The notes below the pieces were generated by a model. It was not told the DNA's origin. It saw only the letters and a list, made by a program, of their open reading frames with translations, and made no database searches. DNA of 20,000 bases, taken from contig MEQL01000055.1 of NCBI GenBank assembly GCA_001770205.1, positions 56,551 through 76,550 on the forward strand, written 5' to 3'. Both the position numbers and the translations under genes were made by a program. Each line of letters starts with the position of its first letter. Position 1 is the stretch's first letter. The stretch is from Bdellovibrionales bacterium RIFOXYD12_FULL_39_22 (GTDB lineage: Bacteria > Bdellovibrionota > Bacteriovoracia > Bacteriovoracales > Bacteriovoracaceae). Shown here in pieces: positions 3,662-20,000 of this stretch.

Positions 3662-6600
3662 TTATTTCCTTCTTAAAATCAATTTACCCTGTCCATCAAC
3701 TATTCCACCTAGGCCATAATCAAACATGGCCGCGTTGGAAGGATCCGTTCTGTATATAAATACATCATTGTTCGTAAATCCCAAACTTGTGGAAGAACCC
3801 ATAGACGGACTAATAGTTTGTGCATTGGTATATAAGCAAAAATAGTTATCTGACGTCGTTGCCAACCCTGCGGCAGCATTAGAATTTTTGCTTAAATCAA
3901 ATCCTTTAATATTTTTATTATTTCTGCACTCAAGTACTAGCGCAACCGTTGCTAACGTTAAATCATCTGGATTTGTACCACTTTCATGGACGGCAATAAT
4001 TTTCTCTTCCACCGCGACATAGACAATATTTTGTCCTAAAGCACCACCAACGCTGGAAAGGCCATCGGCAACTTTTAAATCAACAACACTAACATCCGTA
4101 TTGTTAACGCCTGTATACGTACTTGCGACAACCGAGTTTAAGGTTAAACTATCTTTAATCAGATTATTATCAACGTCTGTCGTAAAATAAACCGCCCCAT
4201 TAGTTGCCATTACAACTGTAGAAATCACTCCCAATCCTATTCGACTTGCTTGTGCCATGGTTTCTAGATTAATCACCACCACCGCTCCACCTGCTGCATA
4301 GGCAACATAATCCGTTCCATTTGATCGCGTAGTTGCCAAATAATTTATCTCACTTGACCCGCCAGGAATAATGCCAAAGCTTCCTGCCGCCCAACTATCC
4401 ATCGCCTCGTTGCGCGCAGCAATTTTGCCATCTACAAATGAATTATCAGAACTTGAACTATAAGCGCTAGTTACTAGATGAATTTGATCATTGGCAAAAT
4501 CAAACACCGTTAAACCACCTTCTCGACCAATAAATAACTTACCGGCGATCGCGGCCATATGATTTATTGATCCCCAACCAGAAGGCATAGCATCAGTGTT
4601 GGCATTTATACGCATAAATTTTTTATTTGCAGTAGCATCGACAATCTCCACATAATTTAGAGCATAGGCCAAAACCATGGCCTTATTTGGGAAATCATGA
4701 CGAGCGCTTCTATAATTCTCGTTAGGATCTACTGTTGAATTATATTCATCATACCAAGACAAATTATCATCGGTGGCCCAAGCTTCTGTTGTTGGAATAT
4801 CCCAAAAAATTGCCTTAGATATTGCTGCGGAGTCTATATCATCATAATCGAAAGTTCCCGTTGCCGTCGTGCCGGTAGCAACCACCACGTTTGCTGTTCC
4901 ACTAGCATCTGTACCAATCCGTAAAGTAAAGGTTCCTGTTTCAAAACCAGTAATGATTGTTCCAAGATCAACTTCGTTATAGTTTTCTGGACGCACATAA
5001 TTTCCACCACCTTTTTCAAGCATCCATTCAGTAGCAGAAGAAGACTCTGTGGGCAGATAATAATTATTATAATCATCAAAGGCAGCAACATAATATGTTC
5101 CGCTAACATTTAAATTTAACGAAATAGCTGCTCCCAAATTTTGAGCGGCCGACGCAGAAGAGGAAACACGATAGCAGGCATTATTTTCGCTATCAGCACT
5201 CACTGTAAATGTTGCCGAATCTCCAACAACCGGCGAAATAGTACTCATCACGCGATTACTATTGGCCACCTTAAACTTGGCCTGGAAGGAATAAACTCCG
5301 CTACTAAATGGCACGGCCGTAACCGATCCATAGGTCTCCAGACTACTTAACGTTCCACAGCCAGCAGTATTCGCGCTAGGGATTGTAAAAGTAAGAGTGG
5401 TGGAAGGAGCGGTTGCCACCGTTACACCGCTTTCATCTTTGGCCGTTACCATTACCCAGGTGTCAACTCCGGCGGTGACGGCAGGTGTTGTATCAACATC
5501 TATATTGTAGTACGCAATTCCATCTTTTTTCAAATATAGAAGTGGTGATGTTCCCGCCACACCGCTATGAGTGGCCACAATATGTGTTCTCCCGGCCGTG
5601 GAGGCGGTTAAATTAAATGTCCCAGTTGTAGCAGTGGCCGGGCCAATTACAATGGCCGTGCTATCCACGGTGGACCAGACCGCATTTGCCATCTTAGAGA
5701 TAAAATTTCCATAAGCATCATAACCGTAGGCCACAAAGCTAGCAGAAGTTGCAGTGCTTGCCTTATCCCAAACAGTGGTGGATGGCCCACTGGTAGGTAA
5801 ATTATCTCCACCGTAACTGCCATCACTGGCCAGTACAACTTTTATTTTAGAAAGTGTATTGGGAGCAATCCAACTATGATCAACCGTGGTGGCCAGCGGC
5901 GCCTGCAAAGCGCTAACACAACTACCTAATCCGTCCGTGCCACACACTTGGGTAGTAAGAATCGGGGACGATCCATCGGCAGTGTAGAAAGTAAATGTTT
6001 TATCCAAATAAGTTGTTCCACTGGCCAAAACAAATGATCCAGAAACGTTGGTAGTAACTGGATTTTGCAATACCGGGTCTGTATGTGAGTTTGCAAAATT
6101 GGCCCAGGTAAGTTTAAACTGTCTCGGCCCGGCGGCCAATGCCGTTTTATAGAAGCGACTATCTACCGCGATAAAGCGCACGGTAGTATCGGCCCCAGTC
6201 GTAAAGGCGGCCACTCCACTAATTGCCGCCGCTCTGCTGGCCACTCCTCCCGCACTATAACTCTCCCCTGGAAAGAGCGGCATGAAATATTTTAAATCTC
6301 CTGGACTTACTTTCAATCCGACGGTACCCGAAGAGGCGGTTATCGCATTAAAAATTGAGCCGGTGGCCGTGGTAGAAACTTCCAGTGTCCCACCCGATGC
6401 AGTAAAGGCCGCAATCGATGCCCCGGCGGCAGTTACCCAGCTAACGCTATCATTGTTTCCAAGAAAATTTCCTCCGGCATCATAAGAAGCCGCATACATG
6501 GTAGTGCTTTGGCCGATTTTTAAATTAACGGTTGTTCCATTAAGCAGTGAACCTTCGCCATTACTACCGGTGAAGATTTTTGTACAGGCCACTGGCCCTG

Positions 6601-9600
6601 GCACTACGTGAGCGGTAGTTGTTCCACCGATCAAAACATTATCTCTATCTACTGCTGATATTGTATAAGTGTCTGGCCGATATAGTGTACCGGAAGTAAA
6701 GGTGCCGGAGCCTCCTGCGAAAGTTATCGCTTTGGTTCCTGTCACATTTGAAATCAAATTTATTCCACTGCACTCACTACTTCCATCTGCATTACTGGAT
6801 GGAGAAAACACTATCGAGCGTACCCCTGTATAACTTACGGCCGTAGTATCACTGCTAGTCATGGCCGTAATAATTATATTAAAGGCCGAAGCAGAAGTTA
6901 TATCTCCGGCCGTACTTAGCGCTAAATCAAAGTGATCAGCATTGCCCGCGGAAATAGAAATGATTCCCGAAGAATCCGCAGGGGGAGAGCCTACTGCCTG
7001 CGAAGTAGCGGTAACAACCATCTCTCCGGACTGTATCAAATTTAAGACGACAGAACTTGCATTCGTAACAGAGGCCATGGGTATTGCACTAAAAGGCGTC
7101 GTAATTAATGTTCCATCTGTTCTTGTAAACGTCCAATCCGCAGTAGTATCGTTACCAATAAAATTTCCAAAGCTATCGTACTTGGCCGCCCAGAAGGTGG
7201 GATCTGCACTTGTTGCGTTAGTCGGATAAGCGAGCGTGTCAATTTCGCTGCCATTTGGCGCATCCACTATCTTTAATACCGCCGCCGAAGAATTGGCCGT
7301 GACAGGAATTGGATACGGTGAGTATCCAATGATGTCCGGCCCCTCCGAGACAACTTTTAGTTTAACATTAGTATTGCTGCTATTGTACAAAACAAAACTT
7401 CCCAGCGCAGCAGTGAAAAGATAGGTTCCGTTAGTGAAGGTAGGAGAGGACATTACTCCATGCACTCGGGCAATATCCCCATTGGGCGAAGGAGTTGTAT
7501 TAATAAACTGAAATGCCAAAGATGTCGGCGGCGAAAAGTTTGAGATGGTATTGAAATTAGAATCTACTGCACGAATTAAAACAGCAAAAGAGCTACCGGC
7601 AGTTTGCGTTCCCACTGCAATGGAGCCTAACGCTTCCGCGGCAGTATCTACTCCATAATTGTATGTACTAATCTGATTGGCCACTGCCACCAAAAAAGAA
7701 ATATTACTACTTCCCGTTGTCACATCATATTCTACTCTATTGGCCAAGGCCGTGTGGGTATAAGAACCGCTATTGGTAAAAGTAAATGTTTTACTATCGC
7801 CTACTGCACTATCTCTAGCGGCAAAATTAATCACACCCGAAGAGAAAGTGTAGCTACCGACCGGAGCAGTAAGCGAGTCAACGCTATTTTTGATGGACCA
7901 GACAGATGTTGAACTATCTGTAGTAATATTGTGATAATCATCTACGGCATATAGTCTTACGCCAAAATCAACACCAGCATTTTTGGTGGCCGTTGCCATT
8001 GAAGGTAAAAAGGTTAAAGTCGAAATTCCTTCTACTAAGGTCTGATCGGAAAAACCATAAACAATTCGCTTACCACTTCCTTCATTTACCACATATGAAG
8101 AGGAGGTAAAGCTAACTATCCCGGCAGTGTTAACCGGAACCAATGCTTTGCCCAGGCCGGCATGTTTATTAAAGGCAGATCCCAACGTGATGCATCCTCC
8201 AGCATCTGAAGTATAACCGGTATCAAGAGTACAACTTCCCCAAATATTAGTAGCAGTAGGTGCCGTAGCATAAGTATCACCGATAAAACTAAAAGTTACT
8301 CCTGTTATTGCACTGGTAGTATTGATGTGATTAAAATATTGATCAACCGCTACCACACGAACATCGAATATTGATCCCACCGTTTGTGTAGATGGCGCCC
8401 CACTAACAGCACTGGCCGAGGATAATTTTCCTTCCTTTAAACTCTGTCCAGGCAGCAGCGCAAGAAGTTTCGTTGCCGAGGGATTCGTACGGGCCACAAA
8501 GCTACTAGACTGATAGTTAGTCCCAACACCACTGTTTGTTATCGACAAGTAGTGTAGTGCTCCAGTGTGTGTCCGTTTATATTCCGTGTAACTACCCAAA
8601 TAAGTTCCAGAAGAAAACGATAAGATATCTGAAGTCGTTTGACTGCTTGTATTGAGAGTAAATCCACGATTGTCAGAAGTTACTGTATTAAAATTTGCAT
8701 CCACTAACTTGGCCATAAAATTAACTGCCGAACCGGCCGTCATGGTATAAGCACTATTAATTAGTCGAGCACCACCGCTCCAAGTAGTATATCCCTCTCG
8801 ATGTGTCTCCGCTGAGGGAAAATATAATATACTGTAGGCCGCATTTCCTGGATCAACTTCATAGGCCGAAGAAGTAAAGTGAGTAGTAATACCCGCACTT
8901 CCTCCTTGTGGAACAAAACGCAAACTACTTCCAGATACGCTGGTAGACAATCTATTGGTGACATTAAAGGATAGAGATCCAGCTGCTGCAGAGTTAAAAG
9001 TAAATTGTCCACCAAGTAGTGCATTGGTATCAGAAAAAATTCCGTTAACCACTCCGGCCATATTGGCCGCACCCAGCGATACTCCCACCGCATCTGTTCC
9101 TGTAGTTTCTATATTGAAGTAGTTATCCACTAAGAATGCCTTAACCGTAAAAGCAGTTCCGGCACGTTGATCTTGTGGTGAATTTGCCAAGGCCTCTGCC
9201 GTAGTGGCCACTCCAGTTATAAGTGTCTGGCCAGGAAGAGTTAGTACAATGTTTTTAACCGCAGTATTGGAAGCTACTGTAAACATCGATGAAGGAACTG
9301 ATGTCAGGCCAGTCACCACCGGAGTTACATATTGCGAACTCATCGCCTTATGCAGAGCAATTGCCCCTCCTACTGTACCGCTGCTCATCGCTCCTAAATT
9401 ATAAGTAGCATTCGAACTAGTATTTAAGGTAGTGACCGTGGCAGAAGAAGTCGTCGTAGTAATTCGATTATAGCAGTTATCTGTAGCGATAACTTTAACA
9501 TTGAAATTAACTCCGGCGGTTTGAGTAGTTGCCGTGGCCAGTGGCCAAGAACCATCAGTATGCGTTTGTCCTGGTAACTCTACAATGGCCTTGCTGGCAC

Positions 9601-12600
9601 TAGCTAATAGAATTGGCGCTCTATAAGTTCCGCTCGCGGCGGTGAATGAGGCCCCGGCCACTGTACCAACAGTTGATAAAGTCCAAGTACCACGCGAGTA
9701 AGTACTCATGTTGATACTAGCACTGCCACTAGTAAACGTTATACTTTGAATATCCGCTTTTGCGATATCATTTGTATCTGTGGTATTAAAAGATAAAACT
9801 CCAGAGGCGGTAGTGGCCGTCACTGGATTAAAATATCTATCCACCACTTTAAATTTTACCGGTAAGCTGCTGCAGGCCGAACCATCTGGAACAACTCCTA
9901 AAACATTGGCCACCGATTCATTTCTATCTCCAAAAGTGGCCGCCTGTGAAGACATTATCGCAATAACTCGCGCAGCAGTTCCCGCTGCAATCGAATAAAT
10001 AGTCGCGGTTCCACTTCCCCAACTTGGAGTGGCCGGAACATTAACCACAATAGTCCCACTAGGCACTGTTGAAGCACGAAAGTCATAAGCAACAAATGCG
10101 CCCGTACCATTTGTTAGGGTAGCGGTAGTAGAGACAAAAGAGAAAGAGTTGGCCGCTCGTCCAGGCATACTAATTGAGGCGGTAGCAACGGTTGGTAATA
10201 CGTTATGATAAGCGTCGGTAACGTGGGCAAAAACAGTAAATGATGATCCGGCCACTTTTGTCCCACCAAATGGAATATCGGGGAAGGCATCATTGTGAGC
10301 AGTAAAACCACTATGTAAAGTCTGTCCAGATAACCCCACCGCTAACATAGTAGTACTAGGATTTGTCTTCACTTCATATTGAGTACTCGGTAAACAGATT
10401 ACCGGGCCCGTACCATTAGGTTCATCACAAATTGGGTGATAAATTCTAATGGCATATTTCACCCCTGTAGCACTAGCAGTTCTAGCATTTAAAGAAGCAA
10501 AAGTTAGCGTGGCCCCACTGCCATCATTATCCGAGGTAGTCGAACGCGTAGTGGCCAGCTCAATAGCATTAGCAGCAGCGTCATCCATATCGAATCTAAA
10601 GTTGGCCGTCTCAATTGGATCATCGGTTACTCCCGTTCCCACGATGCTAAGGCCGTCATCTAAAAAGTATACTCGTGCACCAATGGTGCTTCCGGCGGTA
10701 TAGGTACCGGTGCTATTTGGTACTCCGGTGATAACGGAATCAATGTCTGCCGCAGGAAAATGAGTGGTCTGGCCATCTAAGGCGATAACCGCATATTTAA
10801 TGGATGCCGCAGAATTAACCGTAATTGGCCCAGTAGCGGCCGTCATCGTAGAAGTGGTGGCCATAAATGTTAGACTGCTTCCGGGAACAGAATATCTCGT
10901 TCCAGCAAAAGAGGCCGATCCAGAGCTGAAACTAGCGGTAGGCAGAGGGCCTCCAGCAAAGTTGGCCTCTGGTTTTCCTTGCATGCTACCCGTGGCCAGT
11001 GTCGTGCTATCCGTCCAAACAATATTATTCAAATTGTCATAAATATTTAAAATCGGCCCATTCCAAGCTGTGACGGTGTCGTATGGCCCAGTAGGACTAG
11101 GCGTAGAGGCAAATTGCAAATGGTCCGCCACCCTTGGAAAAATTTTAACATCAGCACTTCCAAAGGCCGTCGACGCAATAGTTGTAGTTAGCGCAGCATC
11201 GGTGGAGAGAGTTTTAATTTTTAAATTTCCAAAACCAACACTCGGTGCTTTCGATTCATTCATCTTAATGGTGACACGGCCAGTTCCGGCGCTAAGTGTT
11301 CCAACAAAGCGTGTGGCCGACGTAATTGTTGTTGAAGTAAAAAAACTGGAAGAAACAAACGTAGCATTATTGGCCGTTGTCAAATTTGGTTCTGGATCTA
11401 GTGTAATAGTCACTGTTCCAGAGGCCCCGGTTGCTGTAGATATAATGTTGTGTCCCAAATCGTGCACCGCCACATCACAATCAAAATTAACTCCGGCCGT
11501 TCCTGTCGAACCAGTGGCCGACAAACAAGCAATATCTATATGATTTGGAGTGCTTGGAACCAGTGTAATTCTTTTACTTACCGTCGCCAGCGCAGCTGAC
11601 GTCCCCATTACCGTTGCAGAAATTATCGCTTTCTGATCTGGCCTTATAGTAGAAACTTTAAATTGATTAGCTTCTGCGGTGGGCCCCACGACTGCTCCTG
11701 CCGCAAAAGTATAAACACCATTTGCTGGTGCATGATTTTCCGGCCCAGTAAATGCTAGATAGGAAGAATCGGTTAAATTGAAGGTGACATTTTTAGGGCC
11801 ATTGTCAGCATCATTTAGTGTCGTTCCCCCGGCATTTTCACTTAAAAGATTATTATCATAGTCGTATATTTTTAAAATATTCAAACCAATGTTACTACCT
11901 GCGACGTATGTTGCATCAGCAGTAATATCTAAAGCAGCATGATCTATCACCCCAGGAAGTATGGAGATATTTATACTGGCCGACTTAGAAGTCATCCCGT
12001 AACTCCAGGTTCCTAGAAGTGTTGAATCCGATAAAGTTCCCAGTCCTGATGTAATAAAGTTAACTTCAATACATCCTTTCTCATAACTGCTATTGGAGGC
12101 CCGGTTGTTTTTAAAAATGGACCAAACACTAGTTTGATCAAATGAAACAGAACCATTGTCTAGTGTTATATCGCTGTAATTACCAAAAGCATCGATGGGA
12201 GCAACACAAAATGGTTCTTCATTATCATCAGCGGTAAAAGTATAACTACCGCCAGAGACATAGGTGAATGAAGGTGCCACATCTTGTTCGTTTCTTAAAT
12301 TGGCAGAGGCCAAAGGGCCGGCGGCCATCGTAAATGTGATGACCTCAGAATAAGCTTCTTTGACACTGCCATTTAACCAATTAGCAGATCCGGAGGCGGC
12401 CAATTTCAACTCCTCTTGGGCCCGCGGAAAAACGACTGGGATTTTATAAACGTCTCTGGTCTCTGCGCCAATGGTGTGAGGAACTGGTGAGAGTCCTGAG
12501 GCGGTGGCAAAAGCGGTGGGAGTGCAAGGTAAATTATCGTAATCTTCATCGCTATCCCCATCAACCGGAAATGGTGATCCAGCACAAGCAGTGGCCCCTG

Positions 12601-15559
12601 TTACTATGCTTCCATCAACATCCACTCCATTTACTCTAACATTTGAGGCGGCGTTAGGAGCTGGACTGGCCGACGTATCCACCAAGTAAAGTCTGGCCGT
12701 CCAAGGATCTCCTTTGGCATCAATCCAGTTATCAAGTTTATCAAAGGCCCGAACAATCAAAGTTGCCGTCGCTGTTGAAACCAACGAGTCCATCGCTATT
12801 TCGTATTTATAGGCCTTATCTGAAACAATTTTGATCACATTATAAGACGATAGAGACTTAGCGTACGTCCCCCCCTCATCGTATTCAAATGTATAGTTGC
12901 CAACCGTAGAAAGGCCGATGGCGCCAAAAGATACTGAACCAGGAATTACTGCCACATTTCCAGCGGGGAAAGTTACTAGCCCGGCCGTTTTTAAGGAGCC
13001 AAGCCCACTGCCTGTAACCAGTGAAGTGGTAAAATCAATGGGATCATAGTCGCCGCCAGCGGCATAATTTGCATCAACCACATTCCCCCACTTATCTTCA
13101 AAAAAAGCTGCGTAGGTATACGCTTCATTACTGGCAGTGTAGCTAGTACAAAAATTAAGTGTATTATCCGCAAGAGCATCACACTTATAGTTTGGATCTG
13201 GATTGGAGCTTAGAACACCACTACATCCATCTCGTGTAAAATTTTGAACAGTTCCGGCCAAAGAGCGACGCCAAAAACCATTTTTACACACTGGCATCCA
13301 TGTTCCACCTTGATTGCTTCTTAAATTTATATATTCTGCCTCACCACGCCAGACGGTAATTCGAGGTGCTCCACTGGCCACAGCGTCTGTAGTGATCGCT
13401 CCACTTTTTCCGGAAGGAATTAGTCCGCCCATAAAAGAACTTTCATTACTAACGATACTTATATAGGGCCGGTAATGAATGTCTTTAAAGGCCATGCGAA
13501 GGCCCGCATTTTCTGCACCATAAGAGGTTCCGTAAATAAAGCGCAAAGGAATAAGCGTTCCTCCGGCCGCAGTTACCAGCTGCCCTGCGCTATTAGGCCA
13601 AGCAGGCAATGTTGTGGCGGCCGTTGCACAAAGATTGGGATCGCCATAATTGTAGGCCAGGGGACTAGAGTAAGAATAATCAGAACAAACATAGTAACCC
13701 ATTACGACACTATTGGCCTGCACAATGGGAAAGGCCGCAAATGTACCAAACGTTCCTGCATTTTCAGTGTAAGCAGAGATAGATAATCCACCGCTACTAT
13801 TTGGAACAACTGGGGAGACAAAATCGGTGGCAGTTTGCGAAGTTGTCATATTGTAGTAGTTGACATCCACACTAACATCAACAGTATCATCAATCACATC
13901 TTCGCAAACATTCCCGTAGCGATCGGCCAGTATAACCCTAATTGGAGAAATTACCCCCGCACGAACTGTATTTTCGTGGCCAGCAATATCCCCGGCCGAA
14001 GTAATAAACTTATATGGCAAATTGTTTTGTACAATAACACTCGCCCCGTAGGTGAAAGCATCATCTTGAACAAAAAGAAAACCATCGCCTTTGGTTTTAG
14101 GAGTAAAAAACAGTTGCTCATTGGTATCGCCCTGCACTGCTGCATTAACTAGCACCTCATCATGAAAAAGATTAGTTGCCGAAGCATTAGTAAAAACATC
14201 AGCGGTAAACGTCCAACTCTCCACGGTGGAACTATCTCTTACGTAATTTCCTCCCGCATCAACGAGTGCCGCAGATAAGGTGGTGGCCGCATTACTGGCC
14301 AAAAAATGATATCCTTCATACACCGGTTCGGTTCCAACATTAGTACGTACCTGTTCCTCCGAACCGTCAGGCAAGGTCATCGTCGTGAAAGTATAGCTGG
14401 GCCCTCCCTCTCCATTTTGAATCACCACACCACTGACATTTCCCCTTTGGACAAAAAGATCAGCGGCCCCCGATTTTAATCCGGTGGCCGGTGCACTGGC
14501 CACCACTCTTATTTTTCCAAAACCGTTGGCAGTAAAGGGAGTTGCCGTCGCAATAGTGGTTCCCCCAACCCAACAAACTCCATTAATGAACTGGCACAAC
14601 TGTGAATAACCCGCCCCCGGCAAAGAAGAAGTCTTTCCAGTCCAACTGATCCCTGCATCATTTTGCCAATCCACCACCACAGTAGCATCTGGAAAAGTAG
14701 AAACCGGTGCGCCCTTGTAGTCAGTAACAACTATTTTAAAACGAAGTGCCTCTCCGGCAGTGATAAAATTTCTCTTAAATCTTTTAGAGTACAGCGCCGG
14801 ACACTGCTCTGAACACAAATTAAGATCCGCAGCACAGGATTCATCGCTTTCGCATACCGGATTTATCACGTACTCATCATCATCAATTGGTAATAGCGAG
14901 CCAGAAACGGAATCAGGAATCTTTCCATACCACTCGTGGCCGGTGACAGATTGATCAGTCGAAACATCGAAAAACTTATCTGTCTCCAAACTAAAGGCAA
15001 ACGGTTCACCTTCACTGACGTCCATAGAAGACGTTATCTGCATCACAAATTTTACCGATTGAGAAAAAGAGGGAATAGATGCGACAACATAAAATTTCTG
15101 ATCCGGGAAAAGAGTAGCTCCGGCCATAACCAATGCAGAAGCACGTCCATATTTATCAGTATGGGTCTCTTCTGGTAGAATCCGAACATCTGCCACACTA
15201 CGATTGATATTAAAGGAGTCAGGATAAGGCTCCGCACGAAACGACACCTGCACTCCCTCCATGGGAACTTTGCCACCCGCGCTGTCACTGTAAAAAGAGA
15301 CCTCTAAGGGTTTAGCAAACAAGCTACCAAGACTGGCATATTGCATAGGATCATCGCCACTGACTTTCAACAACAGCGTTCCCATGGTTCCATCGCCTGG
15401 AACTTTTTTCGAAGAACAAGAATTGGTGATTATAATTGCTGTTGCAAATAAAACAGAAATGAAAAAGAGGCGAAGACTCTTTGCCCAAAAAAATGTCACG
15501 AATTTATTCAACTCGCCAAATTTCATTTTTCTCTCATTCCCATCGCCAAACTTCACCAC
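3662..15559 (-). CDS. Giant (3965 aa) surface lipoprotein / putative adhesin with tandem Ig-like domains and a distinct C-terminal beta-rich domain
   Basis: 11.9-kb uninterrupted ORF. Hydrophobic N-terminus ending in IIITNS-C (Cys48), a lipobox-like site. First domain is Big_1-like (VSGDDPMQ...PLEV...P.EGVQVSF...TDKYGRASA). The motif AG..F.V.V.A.D.Y.N recurs many times. Rich in Thr/Ser/Ala/Gly. The true start could be GTG 15559, GTG 15556 or ATG 15526. Confidence 0.92.
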   Translation of the reverse strand: MVKFGDGNERKMKFGELNKFVTFFWAKSLRLFFISVLFATAIIITNSCSSKKVPGDGTMGTLLLKVSGDDPMQYASLGSLFAKPLEVSFYSDSAGGKVPMEGVQVSFRAEPYPDSFNINRSVADVRILPEETHTDKYGRASALVMAGATLFPDQKFYVVASIPSFSQSVKFVMQITSSMDVSEGEPFAFSLETDKFFDVSTDQSVTGHEWYGKIPDSVSGSLLPIDDDEYVINPVCESDESCAADLNLCSEQCPALYSKRFKRNFITAGEALRFKIVVTDYKGAPVSTFPDATVVVDWQNDAGISWTGKTSSLPGAGYSQLCQFINGVCWVGGTTIATATPFTANGFGKIRVVASAPATGLKSGAADLFVQRGNVSGVVIQNGEGGPSYTFTTMTLPDGSEEQVRTNVGTEPVYEGYHFLASNAATTLSAALVDAGGNYVRDSSTVESWTFTADVFTNASATNLFHDEVLVNAAVQGDTNEQLFFTPKTKGDGFLFVQDDAFTYGASVIVQNNLPYKFITSAGDIAGHENTVRAGVISPIRVILADRYGNVCEDVIDDTVDVSVDVNYYNMTTSQTATDFVSPVVPNSSGGLSISAYTENAGTFGTFAAFPIVQANSVVMGYYVCSDYSYSSPLAYNYGDPNLCATAATTLPAWPNSAGQLVTAAGGTLIPLRFIYGTSYGAENAGLRMAFKDIHYRPYISIVSNESSFMGGLIPSGKSGAITTDAVASGAPRITVWRGEAEYINLRSNQGGTWMPVCKNGFWRRSLAGTVQNFTRDGCSGVLSSNPDPNYKCDALADNTLNFCTSYTASNEAYTYAAFFEDKWGNVVDANYAAGGDYDPIDFTTSLVTGSGLGSLKTAGLVTFPAGNVAVIPGSVSFGAIGLSTVGNYTFEYDEGGTYAKSLSSYNVIKIVSDKAYKYEIAMDSLVSTATATLIVRAFDKLDNWIDAKGDPWTARLYLVDTSASPAPNAASNVRVNGVDVDGSIVTGATACAGSPFPVDGDSDEDYDNLPCTPTAFATASGLSPVPHTIGAETRDVYKIPVVFPRAQEELKLAASGSANWLNGSVKEAYSEVITFTMAAGPLASANLRNEQDVAPSFTYVSGGSYTFTADDNEEPFCVAPIDAFGNYSDITLDNGSVSFDQTSVWSIFKNNRASNSSYEKGCIEVNFITSGLGTLSDSTLLGTWSYGMTSKSASINISILPGVIDHAALDITADATYVAGSNIGLNILKIYDYDNNLLSENAGGTTLNDADNGPKNVTFNLTDSSYLAFTGPENHAPANGVYTFAAGAVVGPTAEANQFKVSTIRPDQKAIISATVMGTSAALATVSKRITLVPSTPNHIDIACLSATGSTGTAGVNFDCDVAVHDLGHNIISTATGASGTVTITLDPEPNLTTANNATFVSSSFFTSTTITSATRFVGTLSAGTGRVTIKMNESKAPSVGFGNLKIKTLSTDAALTTTIASTAFGSADVKIFPRVADHLQFASTPSPTGPYDTVTAWNGPILNIYDNLNNIVWTDSTTLATGSMQGKPEANFAGGPLPTASFSSGSASFAGTRYSVPGSSLTFMATTSTMTAATGPITVNSAASIKYAVIALDGQTTHFPAADIDSVITGVPNSTGTYTAGSTIGARVYFLDDGLSIVGTGVTDDPIETANFRFDMDDAAANAIELATTRSTTSDNDGSGATLTFASLNARTASATGVKYAIRIYHPICDEPNGTGPVICLPSTQYEVKTNPSTTMLAVGLSGQTLHSGFTAHNDAFPDIPFGGTKVAGSSFTVFAHVTDAYHNVLPTVATASISMPGRAANSFSFVSTTATLTNGTGAFVAYDFRASTVPSGTIVVNVPATPSWGSGTATIYSIAAGTAARVIAIMSSQAATFGDRNESVANVLGVVPDGSACSSLPVKFKVVDRYFNPVTATTASGVLSFNTTDTNDIAKADIQSITFTSGSASINMSTYSRGTWTLSTVGTVAGASFTAASGTYRAPILLASASKAIVELPGQTHTDGSWPLATATTQTAGVNFNVKVIATDNCYNRITTTTSSATVTTLNTSSNATYNLGAMSSGTVGGAIALHKAMSSQYVTPVVTGLTSVPSSMFTVASNTAVKNIVLTLPGQTLITGVATTAEALANSPQDQRAGTAFTVKAFLVDNYFNIETTGTDAVGVSLGAANMAGVVNGIFSDTNALLGGQFTFNSAAAGSLSFNVTNRLSTSVSGSSLRFVPQGGSAGITTHFTSSAYEVDPGNAAYSILYFPSAETHREGYTTWSGGARLINSAYTMTAGSAVNFMAKLVDANFNTVTSDNRGFTLNTSSQTTSDILSFSSGTYLGSYTEYKRTHTGALHYLSITNSGVGTNYQSSSFVARTNPSATKLLALLPGQSLKEGKLSSASAVSGAPSTQTVGSIFDVRVVAVDQYFNHINTTSAITGVTFSFIGDTYATAPTATNIWGSCTLDTGYTSDAGGCITLGSAFNKHAGLGKALVPVNTAGIVSFTSSSYVVNEGSGKRIVYGFSDQTLVEGISTLTFLPSMATATKNAGVDFGVRLYAVDDYHNITTDSSTSVWSIKNSVDSLTAPVGSYTFSSGVINFAARDSAVGDSKTFTFTNSGSYTHTALANRVEYDVTTGSSNISFLVAVANQISTYNYGVDTAAEALGSIAVGTQTAGSSFAVLIRAVDSNFNTISNFSPPTSLAFQFINTTPSPNGDIARVHGVMSSPTFTNGTYLFTAALGSFVLYNSSNTNVKLKVVSEGPDIIGYSPYPIPVTANSSAAVLKIVDAPNGSEIDTLAYPTNATSADPTFWAAKYDSFGNFIGNDTTADWTFTRTDGTLITTPFSAIPMASVTNASSVVLNLIQSGEMVVTATSQAVGSPPADSSGIISISAGNADHFDLALSTAGDITSASAFNIIITAMTSSDTTAVSYTGVRSIVFSPSSNADGSSECSGINLISNVTGTKAITFAGGSGTFTSGTLYRPDTYTISAVDRDNVLIGGTTTAHVVPGPVACTKIFTGSNGEGSLLNGTTVNLKIGQSTTMYAASYDAGGNFLGNNDSVSWVTAAGASIAAFTASGGTLEVSTTATGSIFNAITASSGTVGLKVSPGDLKYFMPLFPGESYSAGGVASRAAAISGVAAFTTGADTTVRFIAVDSRFYKTALAAGPRQFKLTWANFANSHTDPVLQNPVTTNVSGSFVLASGTTYLDKTFTFYTADGSSPILTTQVCGTDGLGSCVSALQAPLATTVDHSWIAPNTLSKIKVVLASDGSYGGDNLPTSGPSTTVWDKASTATSASFVAYGYDAYGNFISKMANAVWSTVDSTAIVIGPATATTGTFNLTASTAGRTHIVATHSGVAGTSPLLYLKKDGIAYYNIDVDTTPAVTAGVDTWVMVTAKDESGVTVATAPSTTLTFTIPSANTAGCGTLSSLETYGSVTAVPFSSGVYSFQAKFKVANSNRVMSTISPVVGDSATFTVSADSENNACYRVSSSASAAQNLGAAISLNLNVSGTYYVAAFDDYNNYYLPTESSSATEWMLEKGGGNYVRPENYNEVDLGTIITGFETGTFTLRIGTDASGTANVVVATGTTATGTFDYDDIDSAAISKAIFWDIPTTEAWATDDNLSWYDEYNSTVDPNENYRSARHDFPNKAMVLAYALNYVEIVDATANKKFMRINANTDAMPSGWGSINHMAAIAGKLFIGREGGLTVFDFANDQIHLVTSAYSSSSDNSFVDGKIAARNEAMDSWAAGSFGIIPGGSSEINYLATTRSNGTDYVAYAAGGAVVVINLETMAQASRIGLGVISTVVMATNGAVYFTTDVDNNLIKDSLTLNSVVASTYTGVNNTDVSVVDLKVADGLSSVGGALGQNIVYVAVEEKIIAVHESGTNPDDLTLATVALVLECRNNKNIKGFDLSKNSNAAAGLATTSDNYFCLYTNAQTISPSMGSSTSLGFTNNDVFIYRTDPSNAAMFDYGLGGIVDGQGKLILRRK
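7300..10800 (-). repeat. About nine tandem, divergent Ig-like protein repeats of about 115-150 aa ('LPGQT...AG..F.V...VD.Y.N' type)
   Basis: Unit-start motifs at about 10770 (ALDGQT), 10325 (GLSGQT), 9945 (IMSSQA), 9570 (ELPGQT), 9230 (TLPGQT), 8810 (FPSAET), 8450 (LLPGQS), 8045 (GFSDQT) and 7675 (VANQI). Each is followed by a core such as AGSSFTVFAHVTDAYHN, AGVNFNVKVIATDNCYN, AGTAFTVKAFLVDNYFN, VGSIFDVRVVAVDQYFN or AGVDFGVRLYAVDDYHN. The repeats are visible at protein level only. Boundaries are approximate. Confidence 0.8.
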
Positions 15560-15830: not shown

Positions 15831-16472
15831 TTACTTGTAGTTTAAAGTTATGCCAACAAGTGCTGTCATTGTGCTTCCACTGACGGCATAAACGGTAAAA
15901 CCAAAAGCGTAAGAGTAGCCAATGCGCGCCTCTACCCCCCAATTTTTATTAATTGGATATATTGCGCCGCCATGCGCTCCAGCATCAAATGCCACAGAAT
16001 GTAAGACGACACCGGAATCGTATTCACGCAAATTAACATCGACAACACCAAAATCCCAACCGACAAAAAAGCGATAGCGCGGACGAGAGGAGACAACGTT
16101 TTGACTATCGCTTTCTTCAATGGCCATTCCCGAAGAGCCTAGATAATAACGATTTCCAAAAAAACCTCCCAGATAAGCAACCATCCCTGACGTTGTATTC
16201 ATGGCCACCACACCTTTAAAAAAAACGGCACTATTGGAGTTAAAAAAAGACTCATACTCCGCTTGGACCGTGTTTGTGCCAGTATGATTGTAAGTGTTAT
16301 TTGCTCCGGTATAAGTGCCCGAAGAGGTTCCCAGACTAGCATGAATTTGGGAGTATCCATAGGCCATTTTACTGCCTCCTTCCAGCACCACTAGCAACAC
16401 AAAAATCAAACAATAAATCCCCAAACGTACAACAATAGCTCTAGCACAATATTTTTTTAAATTAAGCAGCAT
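15831..16472 (-). CDS. Small outer-membrane beta-barrel protein (OmpA/OmpW/PorT-size, about 8 strands)
   Basis: N-terminal hydrophobic signal-like segment (possible cleavage at AYG|YSQ). Amphipathic Gly/aromatic strands: VQAEYESFF, YLGGFFGNRYYL, RYRFFVGWDFG, FDAGAHGGAIYPINKNWGVEARIGYSYAFG. Ends in a beta-signal-like strand (LVGITLNYK). The start overlaps the upstream stop by 11 nt. Confidence 0.8.
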   Translation of the reverse strand: MLLNLKKYCARAIVVRLGIYCLIFVLLVVLEGGSKMAYGYSQIHASLGTSSGTYTGANNTYNHTGTNTVQAEYESFFNSNSAVFFKGVVAMNTTSGMVAYLGGFFGNRYYLGSSGMAIEESDSQNVVSSRPRYRFFVGWDFGVVDVNLREYDSGVVLHSVAFDAGAHGGAIYPINKNWGVEARIGYSYAFGFTVYAVSGSTMTALVGITLNYK

Positions 16473-18678
16473 TTCTCACATCCAAAGTTGTTGAAGTTGT
16501 TTGGCCTTGCTGTGCCTTTTCTCCAATCCAATCGTCAATAATTCTATCAATCTCCGGAGAGGCCGACTCATCAATACTTAATTCCTTTCGGAAAAACTGG
16601 ATGAAGGCCCGCCCAATCTTTTCCTTAAAGGATTTGATGGTTGATACTTTGCTTTCATTTTCTAAAATCAACTCCATGTCTGCCTCAATAAAGGATCGCA
16701 TCTTAGAATTTTTATCTCCAAAGACGGAAAGATAAAATTCTCTTTCTGCATCATCTAAAGAAAGCAAAAATTCTACTCGTTGATCTCGCTTATACTTCAT
16801 TAAAATTTTACGAACTACATCTTCGGAAAGACGATTGATCAATTCACCAGGAAAATTTTCTCGCGCTACCTCTTTTAAAATTTCTACTTTGCCATTGCGA
16901 TAGAGTGAATCAAAAAGTGCTCTCTCTTTTTCTAATCCAACGTAAGGAATCATATCGACGATTTTATCTAAAAATGGAGCATAAACACTCTTTTGTTTTG
17001 TATCCAGGGTAGAAAGTAATTTTGTTAACTCTTCGCGCTTTTCATTTAACAAACCGTCTGTGTAATTTAATCCATAATCTGAAAGCAACAAGGCCGTCTC
17101 TTGATCAATTAGTTCATAAGTGTCCGCAATAAAATCAGTAGGCAGTACGTTTAATAAAATTGACCCTATTTCAAAGTCATCGCGCAAAATACGTGCACAC
17201 TCTTGTGGAGTAATTCGCGAAAGAATCTTCTTAGATTCTTTATCCAAAGTAGGTGGAGGTAAAATAATATCTTCCATAATCTGTGCTTCAATAAAAGTAT
17301 CTCCCAGGCGCAAGTTGTTTTTATCCATATCGGTAACTAAATTTTTCTTCCATTGCGCACGTTCGGTAACCGACAGGTTATCAAAAATATATAACAAATC
17401 GTCAGTAGATGATTTTTTAATAATAATAGTCAGGGCCTGCGTTGACCCTTCCGCCTGTTGATTAATCCATCTCCGAATTAACAACAACGCCTCATTGGGG
17501 GAAGATTTTAGCAGAGACATAAATCGGTCAAATCCCACCAGAGGAACATCATCGTCCAAGGAAATAGTTCCACCACTCATACTCAACTGGCCGGCCAACA
17601 TGCCTCCGACCCCTTCACCTCCGGCACCCGTAGGAGCATGTGCCGCGGCCTGCTGCGCCGGAGTTTTAGTGAATGCCTCATCCAGCGTGGTCAAAAATTT
17701 ATTTCCAAATTGGATCATTCTTCCCAAAAGAGCAAATCCTAAAAATCCTATCAACAGCGCAAACAGCACAATTGCAATAGGAATTTTAAATTCCCGGATC
17801 ATCTTTAACACAGGGTTTTCTTCTACCCGCTCGGCCGCTTTTTTGGCCTCTTCTAATTCCAATTTTAATTTGGCCAAACGCGCTTCTTCTTCTTCTCTTT
17901 TAGCGTTGGCCTCATCAGGCGGTATCAGTCCTATTGAAGCGTATGATACTTGCGGAGTAACAGCAGCAATTGGCGTAACAATCCGCTGTAATAAATCTTT
18001 AACCATATCCTGACGCAGTGGCGAAACACTTTTATCTATTAAAACTTCCACTGTGACATTTTTGATTCGATCCATGATGCTAACTGATTCTTGATTTAAA
18101 TTTATTTGTCCTAAAATCTCACGCAGCGATGGCTCGTTTTTATTTTTTTCATCCTCTGTTTGTCCTCCTAATTGAATTGGAAAAGGAAGATCAAACTTAT
18201 CAATAAACAGCGCATTCTCACCGTTGTCGTACTCTTGCGCATTCCGAACAAAAGGATTGGCGGCATCCTTTGCCTGTTTTTCTCTTTGTTTTTCTTCTTC
18301 TTTTTTCTTCTCCTCCAACTCTCTGGCCGCTTTCTCTTCGGCCTCTTTTAAGGCCGCCTTCTGCTTGGCCCGTCGCTCCACCGACTCGGTATCATCCTCG
18401 ATGGAAATCGTAACATTAACAACATATTCATTTGGTTTTAAGATCGAGCTAATTCCGTTGCTGATTTTATTTCTTAAATTATTTTCCTGCTCTGTTTTCT
18501 GAGTAAAAATATCACTAGCAAAGGCCAGTGGATTTATAGAAAAAAACAGCGCTATTAGTCCCCCGGCCAGCAAGAAGCGCAAAGAAAAAAACGCAACGGG
18601 CCCTTTTTTCGCCAAACTTCCGCTCCGATCATTATCATGCTGTTTCATTTGCGATACCTCTATCATGTTCTTTCTCAT
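16462..18678 (-). CDS. Putative FliF-like/FliG-like fusion protein (signal peptide, periplasmic ring-building motif with coiled-coil insert, one TM helix, FliF-C helix, FliG N/M/C-like domains)
   Basis: Signal peptide ends AFA|SD at aa 54. aa 60-95 (EQENNLRNKISNGISSILKPNEYVVNVTISIE) and aa 203-252 (RIKNVTVEVLIDKSV...MVKDLLQRIV...PQVSYASI) resemble the two halves of FliF RBM3. TM helix at aa 299-319. aa 383-407 (FMSLLKSSPNEALLLIRRWIN) resembles the FliF C-terminal 'P..A..IR.W' helix. aa 410-447, 480-535 and 568-700 follow FliG N, M and C helix patterns (e.g. ENFPGELINRLSEDVVRKIL vs EMFxFEDL..LDD..IQ.LL). Alternative start ATG 18648 has a GAGG upstream. Confidence 0.75.
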   Translation of the reverse strand: MRKNMIEVSQMKQHDNDRSGSLAKKGPVAFFSLRFLLAGGLIALFFSINPLAFASDIFTQKTEQENNLRNKISNGISSILKPNEYVVNVTISIEDDTESVERRAKQKAALKEAEEKAARELEEKKKEEEKQREKQAKDAANPFVRNAQEYDNGENALFIDKFDLPFPIQLGGQTEDEKNKNEPSLREILGQINLNQESVSIMDRIKNVTVEVLIDKSVSPLRQDMVKDLLQRIVTPIAAVTPQVSYASIGLIPPDEANAKREEEEARLAKLKLELEEAKKAAERVEENPVLKMIREFKIPIAIVLFALLIGFLGFALLGRMIQFGNKFLTTLDEAFTKTPAQQAAAHAPTGAGGEGVGGMLAGQLSMSGGTISLDDDVPLVGFDRFMSLLKSSPNEALLLIRRWINQQAEGSTQALTIIIKKSSTDDLLYIFDNLSVTERAQWKKNLVTDMDKNNLRLGDTFIEAQIMEDIILPPPTLDKESKKILSRITPQECARILRDDFEIGSILLNVLPTDFIADTYELIDQETALLLSDYGLNYTDGLLNEKREELTKLLSTLDTKQKSVYAPFLDKIVDMIPYVGLEKERALFDSLYRNGKVEILKEVARENFPGELINRLSEDVVRKILMKYKRDQRVEFLLSLDDAEREFYLSVFGDKNSKMRSFIEADMELILENESKVSTIKSFKEKIGRAFIQFFRKELSIDESASPEIDRIIDDWIGEKAQQGQTTSTTLDVRNAA

Positions 18679-18693
18679 AAATACTCTCTTGAA

Positions 18694-19431
18694 TTACTGT
18701 TGTTGAGGTGCTTCTCCCTCAAGAGGAGCTCCTTCAGTAGTTCCTGTATTGCTATTTTGATTAGTTGTATTTCCAGTTGTGTCTGCTCCAGCGCCGCTAC
18801 CACCACCACCTTCGGATGTAAGATTAAACTGCTTTTCTACGGCCCGCTTTAATCGCAACGCCTCTACATTTCCCGAATTATATTTAATGGCCATCTTGAA
18901 ATTATCTAAGGCCTGCGTGTATCGTTGCTCAATAAGATCAACGCCTCCTTCAAATTCATAGATAACTGATAGGTAAGGAAATTGAACTTTTATTTTATTT
19001 AAAATTTCTCTGGCCCGAACCAGTTCTTTTTTTCGAATCAATTTCTGACACTCAAAAAGATCGGTCACCACTGAATCAATAGAATTTGCCATATCCAAAA
19101 AGTTGGTGGCCTCCATTTTAACTTTAATTTCAATATCTCTGGCATTAAGATCGGTAACAATAACCGTTGAAGAAAGATATCCTTCCTTGCGCAGCTCTAA
19201 AAACATAGTTCCAGATCCACCAAAGGCATCGCTAACATCGCTCGACTGAATGGTCAGCGGCGTAGTTCCAATTTTTTTGGAAGTACTATCGGATAATTTC
19301 CTTATATAGATATCGGCCTTGGTAGGATCGCTGTTAATTGTAATGGTTGATGAAGCACATGCCACCAACCCCAATAGCAAAAGACCTCGTCCCATCTTTG
19401 CTGCTAACAATAAACTTTTTCTCGCCAACAT
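18694..19431 (-). CDS. PEGA-domain + TPR lipoprotein
   Basis: GGGGAG Shine-Dalgarno sequence just upstream of the ATG. Lipobox LVA-C (Cys25). PEGA signature ITINSDPTKADIY...IGTTPL...LELRKEGY. TPR-like helices (AREILNKIKVQFPYLSVIYEFEGGVDLIEQRYTQALDNFKMAIKYNSGNVEA). Low-complexity G/T/N/Q tail. Confidence 0.88.
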   Translation of the reverse strand: MLARKSLLLAAKMGRGLLLLGLVACASSTITINSDPTKADIYIRKLSDSTSKKIGTTPLTIQSSDVSDAFGGSGTMFLELRKEGYLSSTVIVTDLNARDIEIKVKMEATNFLDMANSIDSVVTDLFECQKLIRKKELVRAREILNKIKVQFPYLSVIYEFEGGVDLIEQRYTQALDNFKMAIKYNSGNVEALRLKRAVEKQFNLTSEGGGGSGAGADTTGNTTNQNSNTGTTEGAPLEGEAPQQQ

Positions 19432-19558: not shown

Positions 19559-20000
19559 CATAGGTGATCGGTATTTTTCATGCCTTTTTTCCTGTCATTC
19601 GTAAAACATGTTGTACAGAGGTCTTTCTCCTTTTGTTAGGATCAAATAATTCATCTAATTTTAAGAGCAAATGGATGAATGATTGTTGTGACAATAATCG
19701 ACACCAACACTAAACTCATAACAATGTTGGCATTTGCAGAAGAAATATCAGCGATTCGCAAACTTCCCTTGGCAGTTTTAAAAAGTAATTCCACCGACCA
19801 CCTAAGCCGATATAACGTCGTCAATTGCCTGAAAAAGCGCAAAGTCAAAATATCCGAGATCAAAGATTATAAGATATCCTGCGACTGTTTTTAAATCCGG
19901 AAAATGATTGTGATCGTTGCTAGTTCCAGGACTTATATCAAACCATTTTACAACACCGCCAAAAATGTCAAAGCAGTGATGCCACTTTATCACCGCCGCG
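19559..20000 (-). mobile_element. Degenerate IS4-family insertion sequence, right end (continues beyond the window)
   Basis: Transposase remnant plus a candidate terminal inverted repeat CATAGGTGATCGGT starting at 19559, 19 nt beyond the transposase stop. Several IS4 subgroups have ends beginning with CAT. The partner end is outside the window. Confidence 0.65.
19578..20000 (-). pseudogene. IS4-family DDE transposase remnant, internally deleted and frameshifted
   Basis: Three pieces separated by frame changes: KWHHCFDIFGG...DISPGTSND...LIIFDLGYFDFALFQAIDD (second catalytic Asp region); LYRLRWSVELLFKTAK (exact IS4 Y-2-R-3-E-6-K signature); and a likely C-terminus DELFDPNKRRKTSVQHVLRMTGKKA* with its stop at 19578-19580. 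Confidence 0.88.

Follow-up and report, generated by a model that had tools for sequence, protein, structure and literature searches.

A FliF-like/FliG-like fusion protein of a Bdellovibrionales bacterium, the probable rotor subunit of a non-flagellar motor

Gene P0001 of Bdellovibrionales bacterium RIFOXYD12_FULL_39_22 encodes a protein in which a FliF-like membrane and ring-building part is joined head-to-tail to a FliG-like cytoplasmic part. It is found in a 20,000-nucleotide stretch of contig MEQL01000055.1 (assembly GCA_001770205.1, positions 56,551 to 76,550), which is referred to below as the window. P0001 (16462..18678, minus strand) is a single open reading frame (ORF) of 738 amino acids (aa), and its domains were assigned using family alignments, sequence profiles and structure models. 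The protein is probably a one-polypeptide rotor subunit of a non-flagellar, flagellar-type motor that is driven by a dedicated MotA/MotB (MotAB) stator. The gene is the centre of a conserved cassette, with a partner named c1 upstream and a second named c2 downstream. All features described in the window are on the minus strand.

The fusion gene and its annotation

P0001 is part of a run of genes on the same strand in the ORF list of the window, and the G+C content is 38-48% across the whole window. The public record of the protein is predicted to be 734 aa long, starting at Met5. A previous reading made from the DNA alone (the sequence-only reading) described P0001 as a FliF-FliG fusion, and all of the segments that it quoted are present in this one ORF in the order given: the FliF-C-like helix SSPNEALLLIRRWINQ at aa 392-407 (window 17458-17505), and FliG-like stretches at aa 410-443 (N-terminal), aa 485-519 (middle) and within aa 571-647 (C-terminal). 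It also predicted that the gene would probably be annotated as hypothetical or just as a protein with a FliG C-terminal domain, and the public names of relatives in Bacteriovoracaceae metagenome-assembled genomes are 'hypothetical protein'.

The best single-sequence Pfam match of P0001 is a sub-threshold one to MgtE_N (E-value: 0.0024; aa 572-652). Pfam gave no match to FliG_N, FliG_M or FliG_C for P0001 at E-values of 1 or below, nor for six close relatives, and an NCBIfam scan of P0001 gave no match.

FliG-like cytoplasmic half

As modelled, the cytoplasmic half of P0001 carries a complete FliG fold, with the N-terminal (N), middle (M) and C-terminal (C) domains all present in structure alignments and arranged in the FliG order. 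A profile of 88 aligned family members (the A2 profile) was run against 177,635 PDB sequences using HMMER and matched solved FliG proteins with E-values of 5.9e-7 (3ajc_A, M and C domains) and 8.8e-4 (8umx_B). An AlphaFold2 model of aa 370-738, built without templates from a 145-row alignment (pLDDT 93.5, pTM 0.81), consists of two FliF-C-like helices followed by FliG N, M and C domains. When this model was searched against the PDB using Foldseek, the first 12 rows were all FliG, mostly matched over the full length (319-342 columns). A second look with VIA-align gave FliG as the 14 best entries (Z 8.7-10.5), followed by MgtE at Z 5.0, with model residues 40-347 collinear with Salmonella FliG 3-329 (281 aligned). 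FliG also took the top 8 places (Z 9.7-6.4) in a scan of 48,161 chains that was independent of Foldseek. The identity of P0001 to FliG is approximately 15-17%. Compared by hhalign with the FliG of this genome, the family gave a weak though collinear alignment (probability 15%, E-value: 0.0017), the single-sequence template limiting the comparison.

Each of the three domains has its own structural counterpart. In the FliG-N-like domain (17263..17454; aa 409-472), the model from residue 40 or 41 onwards corresponds to FliG from residue 3 or 4 onwards in 8umx_B, 8wiw_3 and 8umd_B. The FliG-M-like domain (17002..17250; aa 477-559) matches the middle domain of Helicobacter pylori FliG (4fq0_C: Z 8.7, rmsd 2.1, 79 aligned, model 108-190). 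The FliG-C-like domain (16561..16857; aa 608-706), which is also covered by the profile match to 3ajc_A, matches the C-terminal domain of Thermotoga maritima FliG (1qc7_B: Z 9.2, rmsd 2.5, 89 of 89 residues aligned, model 239-337).

A generic ARM-like or MgtE-N fold, named by the sequence-only reading as the alternative for this half, is ruled out, as FliG tops every cytoplasmic fold search and the N-M-C order is complete. The same results bear on a non-mechanical function, in which P0001 would be a membrane-anchored sensor or regulator that recognises, for instance, Mg2+ or another protein through a helical domain of the MgtE-N kind. Although MgtE_N is the only family given by the single-sequence Pfam search (the E-value of 0.0024 noted above) and MgtE appears in the fold lists at Z 5.0-6.0, it falls far below FliG and matches one sub-domain only. 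A sensor of this kind would also leave the link to motAB unexplained, and P0001 has no transporter domain. Such a function is considered very improbable.

Two short motifs of FliG are not kept. At the FliM-binding motif of the middle domain (EHPQR), the aligned positions are D-D-F-E in P0001 versus E-H-P-Q in T. maritima FliG. Among the 88 members these positions are mixed E/K/D, then N/D, then P in 34 and then E in 36. The FliG hinge motif is replaced by an F-P pair, of which P610 is invariant in the 88 members and F609 is found in 60. A charged helix (16663..16716; aa 655-672) stands at the place of the FliG torque helix, as judged from conservation in the 88 members and the HMMER alignment. 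Position 659 is basic in 90% of members and 661 in 76%, while acidic residues occupy position 662 in 92%, 665 in 68% and 667 in 100% (E in 77, D in 11). In the HMMER alignment, this helix falls on the FliG helix whose first residue is the Arg that pairs with MotA in E. coli. The charged residues of the E. coli FliG torque helix that face MotA are R281, D288 and D289 (PMC12505986).

FliF-like membrane and periplasmic parts

In its modelled topology P0001 follows the FliF layout, with a periplasmic region between two hydrophobic helices and a cytoplasmic C-terminus. In the model of aa 1-372 (pLDDT 79.1), helices 26-46 and 298-337 flank the periplasmic domain, and a long helix precedes the membrane helix. 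The N-terminal hydrophobic helix (18541..18603; model aa 26-46, hydrophobic run aa 27-54) could be either a first transmembrane helix (TM1) as in FliF or a cleavable signal peptide. Signal peptide cleavage follows an Ala-x-Ala rule, and by eye the end of the hydrophobic run (Ala-Phe-Ala before Ser55) fits it. The second transmembrane helix (TM2; 17722..17784; approximately aa 299-319) is placed by model helix 298-337 and the profile.

The periplasmic region contains a motif (17923..18516; aa 55-252) similar to the third ring-building motif (RBM3) of FliF, assigned from the model, VIA-align and the profile. It is composed of a helix (57-76), a strand (85-93), an insertion, a second strand (205-215), a second helix (220-233) and a third strand (243-249), and is the single alpha-beta-beta-alpha-beta domain between the membrane helices of the model. 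Pfam gave no YscJ_FliF match (PF01514; RBM1/RBM2) for P0001 even at E-values up to 1; the genome's own canonical FliF matches PF01514 with an E-value of 5.6e-61. When the periplasmic part was compared with the 48,161 chains using VIA-align, the three best matches were all FliF RBM3: 8z5v_A (Vibrio FliF, residues 260-452; Z 11.4, rmsd 3.1, 96 aligned, 21% identity), 6scn_A (FliF 232-438; Z 11.2) and 8z4d_1 (Z 10.5). The alignment to FliF spans the FliF collar insertion (residues 232-438). The insertion in P0001 (18067..18399; aa 94-204, from the model and family alignment) has approximately 110 residues and lies between strands 1 and 2 of the motif, the same place as the FliF collar. It is modelled as a charged helix (96-139) followed by a low-confidence stretch (pLDDT 47-58), in a monomer model that cannot show a collar. 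This stretch holds the most conserved periplasmic residues, K161 (invariant) and P167 (at least 90%).

Two FliF-C-like helices of the kind that binds FliG (17458..17538; aa 381-407) were identified by HMMER, the model and conservation. They are modelled with high confidence (model 12-23 and 25-38; pLDDT 96-97) ahead of the part matching FliG residue 3, and W404 is kept in 87 of the 88 members. The A2 profile matches FliF with E-values of 1.6e-3 and 5.6e-3 and covers the start of RBM3, TM2 and the C-terminal helix. Profile positions 40-84 correspond to FliF 240-293 and 268-311 (start of RBM3), positions 230-330 to Salmonella FliF 466-559 (TM2 and C-terminus), and positions 296-330 to the last residues of both Salmonella and Vibrio FliF. 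The depth of the 88-member profile was needed for these results, as a shallow profile of six close relatives matched only FliF in the PDB, at an E-value of 0.49. With hhalign, the family compared with the genome's own FliF gave a weaker result than with FliG (probability 0.35%, E-value: 0.17), in a comparison again limited by its single-sequence template.

The profile, AlphaFold2 model and structure matches together put the resemblance well above chance and bear out a natural fusion of FliF-like to FliG-like parts with the domains in N-M-C order. The order of the domains mirrors that of the fliF and fliG genes, which is kept in the canonical fliF-fliG pair on contig C39 of this genome. An origin from a duplicated fliF-fliG pair, as the sequence-only reading suggested, is plausible from this domain order.

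MotA and MotB stator genes

ORFs were called and clustered in 23 loci (21 family genes in 19 other genomes, the paralog in this genome and the window). Clusters of motA (MotA_ExbB) and motB (MotB_plug and OmpA, both over the Pfam cut-offs) are present in 13 of the 23. At 7 further loci, motA is on the same contig as the fusion gene, 16-21 kb away. All 10 matches of the MotA profile in the PDB are flagellar MotA/PomA (best E-value: 7e-50; positions 5-259 of 263). By sequence, the MotA of the linked stator pair thus resembles flagellar MotA/PomA from end to end, and its MotB carries plug and OmpA-like domains. The cytoplasmic loop of this MotA has an Arg (12 R and 1 K of 13) at the place of the Arg pair in solved MotA structures.

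The MotA profile was also run on the same 301 genomes of the phylum as the fusion. All 37 genomes with a MotA of at least 325 bits carry the fusion, and all 39 genomes with the fusion at E-values up to 1e-41 have a MotA of at least 312 bits. The best MotA in a genome without the fusion scores 296 bits, and the flagellar MotA of this genome scores 243. The copy numbers of fusion and MotA are equal in five genomes (2/2 in four and 3/3 in one), and their tallies by genus match for 29 of the 30 genera listed in both searches; g13 differs (0/2 vs 1/2).

The main rival to a rotor is a static or conformationally driven envelope scaffold, with a fixed RBM3-like platform like that of injectisome SctJ/SctD or of SpoIIIAG in sporulation, and a FliG-like domain that MotAB energises as ExbBD and TolQR energise TonB and TolA, without continuous rotation. 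The partners of the fusion are envelope proteins, the acidic MotA position of flagellar torque generation is not conserved, and RBM domains of non-rotating rings also match the periplasmic motif (PrgK at Z 8.1, EscJ at 7.9, CdsD at 7.4 and SpoIIIAG at 7.1), all of which would suit such a scaffold. However, the stator is of the full-length flagellar MotA/PomA type and not of the ExbB/TolQ type (10 of 10 PDB matches), the whole FliG fold and its charged helix are kept, and FliF outranks the non-rotating RBM proteins. A scaffold is considered unlikely, though it deserves to be taken seriously.

A second use of a MotAB-like motor is found in Zorya-like anti-phage systems, in which the motor signals to effectors. 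The MotB proteins do match ZorB models (E-values of 2e-16 to 1e-6), as would be expected for any MotB, but PADLOC gave no match for the fusion, c1, c2 or either MotA, there was no ZorA match, and the cassette has no conserved gene for a nuclease or another effector. An anti-phage function of this type is hardly credible.

Proposed mechanism

The favoured reading, a one-polypeptide rotor subunit with its own MotAB stator, would work as follows. The RBM3-like domains would assemble the subunits into a ring in the inner membrane, which would carry the FliG-C-like domains as a circular array. The MS ring of FliF has about 34 subunits. MotAB units, gated by the MotB plug, would be anchored to peptidoglycan by the OmpA-like domain of MotB. 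MotAB would push the conserved charged helix of the FliG-C-like domain and so turn the ring. Such a ring could not house a type III export gate or bind the FliM/FliN switch; there would be no seat for the gate because RBM1 and RBM2 are absent. With neither export gate nor FliM/FliN binding, no filament would be built or turned. The observations fit a flagellar-type rotor and stator that either lost the parts for exporting and turning a filament or never possessed them. The periplasmic ring and its conserved insertion might instead pass motion to c1, c2 and giant lipoproteins encoded nearby, and the purpose might be surface adhesion or movement, or the handling of the giant proteins.

The sequence-only reading had proposed an MS+C-ring-like oligomer. 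This description goes too far, as a single RBM3-like motif is present without RBM1/RBM2, the FliM-binding motif is lost and neither fliM nor fliN was found among the scanned neighbours.

A more specific proposal is that the cassette encodes a free-standing rotary nanomachine made of the flagellar torque core only, without export apparatus, switch, rod or filament. It would deliver rotation to c1, the c2 barrel and the giant lipoproteins, and surface movement or adhesion in predatory Bacteriovoracaceae and their relatives could be driven in this way. This proposal is tentative, and somewhat doubtful as a whole.

Several points weigh against a rotor. That the protein forms rings, rotates and touches MotA is inferred in each case, and the output of the machine is a guess. 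On the FliF side, the periplasmic fold is a common one, with OsmC-like proteins at Z 9.5, within 2 of FliF. Foldseek gave no match for the N-terminal model at E-values up to 0.001; its best FliF row has an E-value of 0.27, and FliF rows stand at ranks 5, 21 and 32. The FliF sequence matches are borderline for any single stretch (i-Evalue 0.28-33). FliF homology of the periplasmic half is probable rather than certain. On the FliG and stator side, the HMMER register puts the charged residues of the helix one residue off E. coli R281/D288/D289, and where solved MotA has its acidic residue, the dedicated MotA varies (commonest residues: E in 3, K in 3, A in 2, D in 1). As for the co-occurrence counts, the MotA cut-off was set after the scores were known, the MotA profile was built from genes adjacent to the fusion and so favours these lineages, and related genomes are not independent.

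Finally, the window itself has no motAB, and the matching pair is on another contig (C7:146126-147881). The MotA of this pair (C7:147069-147881) is 58-64% identical to the motA beside the ortholog of the window gene in locus L006. The pair lies 2.8 kb from the end of its contig. Both C7 and the contig of the window (C55) end in repeats, and a junction between them could not be established. The assembly breaks just upstream of the cassette, where the contig stops 0.6 kb past P0003 (c1) in a repeat fragment shared with contig C44. Transposase-like ORF fragments were observed at this contig end (window 19651-20000), and a 175-nucleotide stretch of the same region is 98% identical to C44.

Cassette partners and neighbouring genes

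The upstream partner c1 (P0003, 245 aa; 18694..19431) has a signal peptide with a lipobox-like Cys, a PEGA-like domain (Pfam PEGA E-value: 0.0043) and a TPR domain matched by profile. It is separated from the fusion gene by 15 nucleotides in the window. In 22 of the 23 loci c1 is directly upstream of the fusion on the same strand; the exception is a 368-aa soluble form of the fusion, described below. The downstream partner c2 (P0002, 213 aa; 15831..16472) overlaps the fusion gene by 11 nucleotides and adjoins the c1-fusion pair in 19 of the 23 loci. It has a signal peptide followed by a beta-rich pattern of Gly and aromatic residues, from which it is probably an outer-membrane beta-barrel. No Pfam match was found for c2, and its profile gave one chance-level match only in the PDB. 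A predicted complex of the periplasmic part of the fusion (aa 47-296) with c1 (aa 24-206) scored 0.01 against a mark of 0.32, which speaks neither for nor against binding.

Two giant ORFs follow in tandem and are 23-27% identical to each other. The first (3662..15559; 3965 aa) has a lipoprotein-like N-terminus with the weaker lipobox-like signal of the two and no Pfam match; it is distantly similar to large proteins beside the fusion in loci L046 and L031. The second starts in the window (3..3653) and continues for 4701 residues beyond it, into L004 5894-19999, to a total of approximately 5900 aa. It has a clear lipoprotein-like signal, and its start gives a sub-threshold match to Big_1 (E-value: 4.4e-5). 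Large Cys-lipobox proteins with fn3/Ig domains recur in the related loci. A HEAT-repeat protein of 311-350 aa also recurs (L048 11198-12130; L006 5778-6827; L031 7294-8334; L046 5944-6972). It is directly after motB in three of these four loci and downstream of c2 in L031, and the L046 copy is only faintly HEAT-like (E-value: 0.078).

The neighbours scanned with Pfam comprised 2 in the window, 9 proteins on this contig (including both giants and six ORFs in the 20 kb downstream) and sets of 18, 51 and 17 proteins in relatives. Besides motAB and one FliG_M protein (in L031), no flagellar family was found among them, in the window or in relatives, and no fliF, fliM/N, fliH/I, flhA/B, fliP/Q/R, rod or hook gene was present. 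The sequence-only reading had placed P0001 outside any flagellar operon, and Pfam indeed gave no other flagellar family in the ORFs scanned in the window and the 20 kb downstream.

These neighbours count against a flagellar function, in which the fusion would supplement or replace a rotor subunit of the ordinary flagellum, mixed into or beside the FliF/FliG rings and recruiting extra stators. The genome does have a canonical fliF-fliG pair, and its relative Bdellovibrio runs one flagellum with three motAB pairs (PMC13689555 and PMC3526173). However, RBM1/RBM2 are missing and the FliM-binding motif is lost. Pfam gave no flagellar gene among the scanned neighbours, the close linkage of the fusion is to partners from outside the flagellum (c1 in 22 of 23 loci), and its distribution over flagellated relatives is patchy (23 of 67 genomes of its own family). 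A role in the ordinary flagellum is improbable.

Other observations were made among the neighbouring genes. Downstream of the giants and on the same strand (L004 4104-5749) are genes for a cupredoxin-like protein (E-value: 8e-6) and a T2SSE/PilT-type ATPase (E-value: 6e-50). Two proteins of 291 and 1042 aa with an N-terminal methylation (pilin-like) motif are encoded a few genes from the fusion in L028 (845-4860). The FliG_M protein of L031 (16670-17680) is a stand-alone protein of 337 aa that is above the Pfam cut-off (E-value: 4.6e-7) and divergent from the motA of that locus.

Family distribution and further copies in the genome

The sequence-only reading called P0001 an orphan. This description does not hold: the protein belongs to a family of 294 representative clusters, has a paralog in the same genome and is part of a conserved cassette with dedicated motAB. 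The family search covered 1.84 billion representatives and gave the 294 clusters at E-values up to 0.001, of which 249 match at 1e-10 and 129 at 1e-30. Nearly all members are 600-800 aa long and match from the membrane helix to the C-terminus. A locus search with a 6-member alignment gave 2 loci, and a protein search with the 88-member alignment gave the same 6 proteins. Within the phylum, the fusion is present in 41 of 301 genomes at E-values up to 1e-10; these include 23 of the 67 genomes of its own family, and six other families are represented. A protein language-model atlas contains look-alike clusters of similar length in Balneolota, Bacteroidota, Pseudomonadota, Elusimicrobiota and others, with members that carry FliG_M, FliG_C and sometimes YscJ_FliF_C. 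As a lead only, the FliF-FliG architecture may be broader than this phylum and overlooked.

The soluble form of 368 aa mentioned above (L042 3917-6570; G210:C5) has FliF-C-like helices and a FliG-like N-M-C part without the membrane and periplasmic part. Its gene comes after that of a 516-aa protein, which has a single membrane helix and coiled-coil repeats rich in leucine, and adjoins motAB.

This genome has two fusion paralogs, P0001 on C55 and a second gene on contig C23, and two MotA genes of the fusion-linked type. The C23 paralog (C23:28339-30312; L039 9040-11013) is 657 aa long and has its own c1 directly upstream; a divergent motA/motB pair is directly downstream and c2 is four genes further on. 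A set of genes on contig C31 (L049 4098-12617) encodes a c1-like TPR protein (profile E-value: 2e-31), a 1235-aa NHL/PKD protein, a response regulator and motA/motB. The 588-aa protein encoded after this motA/motB pair has a C-terminus weakly aligned to the FliG-C-like region (hhalign E-value: 0.0034, probability 9.6%). The C31 genes may represent a third, more diverged system. A second FliG_C above the Pfam cut-off (E-value: 2.6e-14) was observed in a 149-aa frame away from the flagellar genes (C4:54543-54860; L002).

Significance and comparison with known systems

To our knowledge, FliF, FliG and MotAB have been described in the flagellum only. If a conserved and widespread rotor-stator core is indeed combined with unrelated envelope proteins, the best studied of the bacterial rotary motors would have been put to a new use. 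The cassette makes testable the long-standing question of whether such a core works, and is selected, without export apparatus and filament. If the proposal is true, living cells benefit from a rotor and stator that have no filament to turn, a point of interest for the origin of the flagellar motor. A single-gene rotor with its own stator would also simplify the study of ring assembly and torque generation. According to a 2026 review (PMC13104615), neither the motor nor the adhesins for gliding in Bdellovibrio have yet been identified. The cassette is a candidate for a Bdellovibrio-type gliding motor, but its distribution is patchy (the 41 of 301 genomes given above).

The system resembles the flagellar FliF/FliG/MotAB set in its RBM3-like motif with an insertion at the same site, its membrane helix, the FliF-C helices placed before FliG N-M-C, the charged helix of the C domain, the flagellar-type MotA and a MotB with plug and OmpA-like domains. 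It differs in that the fusion is one polypeptide and not two, lacks RBM1/RBM2 and has not kept the FliM-binding and hinge motifs. Its partners also differ from those of the flagellum, being a PEGA/TPR protein, a small beta-rich protein, a HEAT-repeat protein and giant lipoproteins.

Laboratory fusions of FliF and FliG in Salmonella and Vibrio likewise join FliF head-to-tail to FliG in one chain. These are engineered or mutant, full-length and part of a flagellum, whereas P0001 is natural, truncated to RBM3 and non-flagellar. Rings of the Vibrio fusion are reported to have been purified and solved (10.1101/2023.02.06.527414, PMC11481574). In a full-text literature search, engineered or mutant FliF-FliG fusions were found and no natural or non-flagellar one; most subscription journals are outside the coverage of the search, so a prior description is possible.

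The non-rotating rings of injectisomes (SctJ, with PrgK and EscJ, and SctD, with CdsD) and of sporulation (SpoIIIAG/AH) share the alpha-beta-beta-alpha-beta ring-building fold (Z 7.1-8.1), and SpoIIIAG also has an insertion in its ring-building motif. Unlike P0001, these proteins have neither a FliG-like cytoplasmic domain nor MotAB, and they score below FliF. The N-terminal domain of MgtE has a FliG-related helical repeat; P0001 lacks the CBS and transporter parts of MgtE.

Further envelope machines run on 5:2 ion motors, namely GldLM of type IX secretion system (T9SS) gliding, AglRQS, ExbBD-TonB, TolQR and ZorAB, in which an ion-driven stator powers a non-flagellar envelope process. In Bacteroidota, a rotary motor moves giant surface adhesins (PMC13104615). 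None of these motors is described with a FliG/FliF-type rotor in that review, whereas in the system described here a MotAB of the flagellar type is paired with a FliF-FliG homologue.

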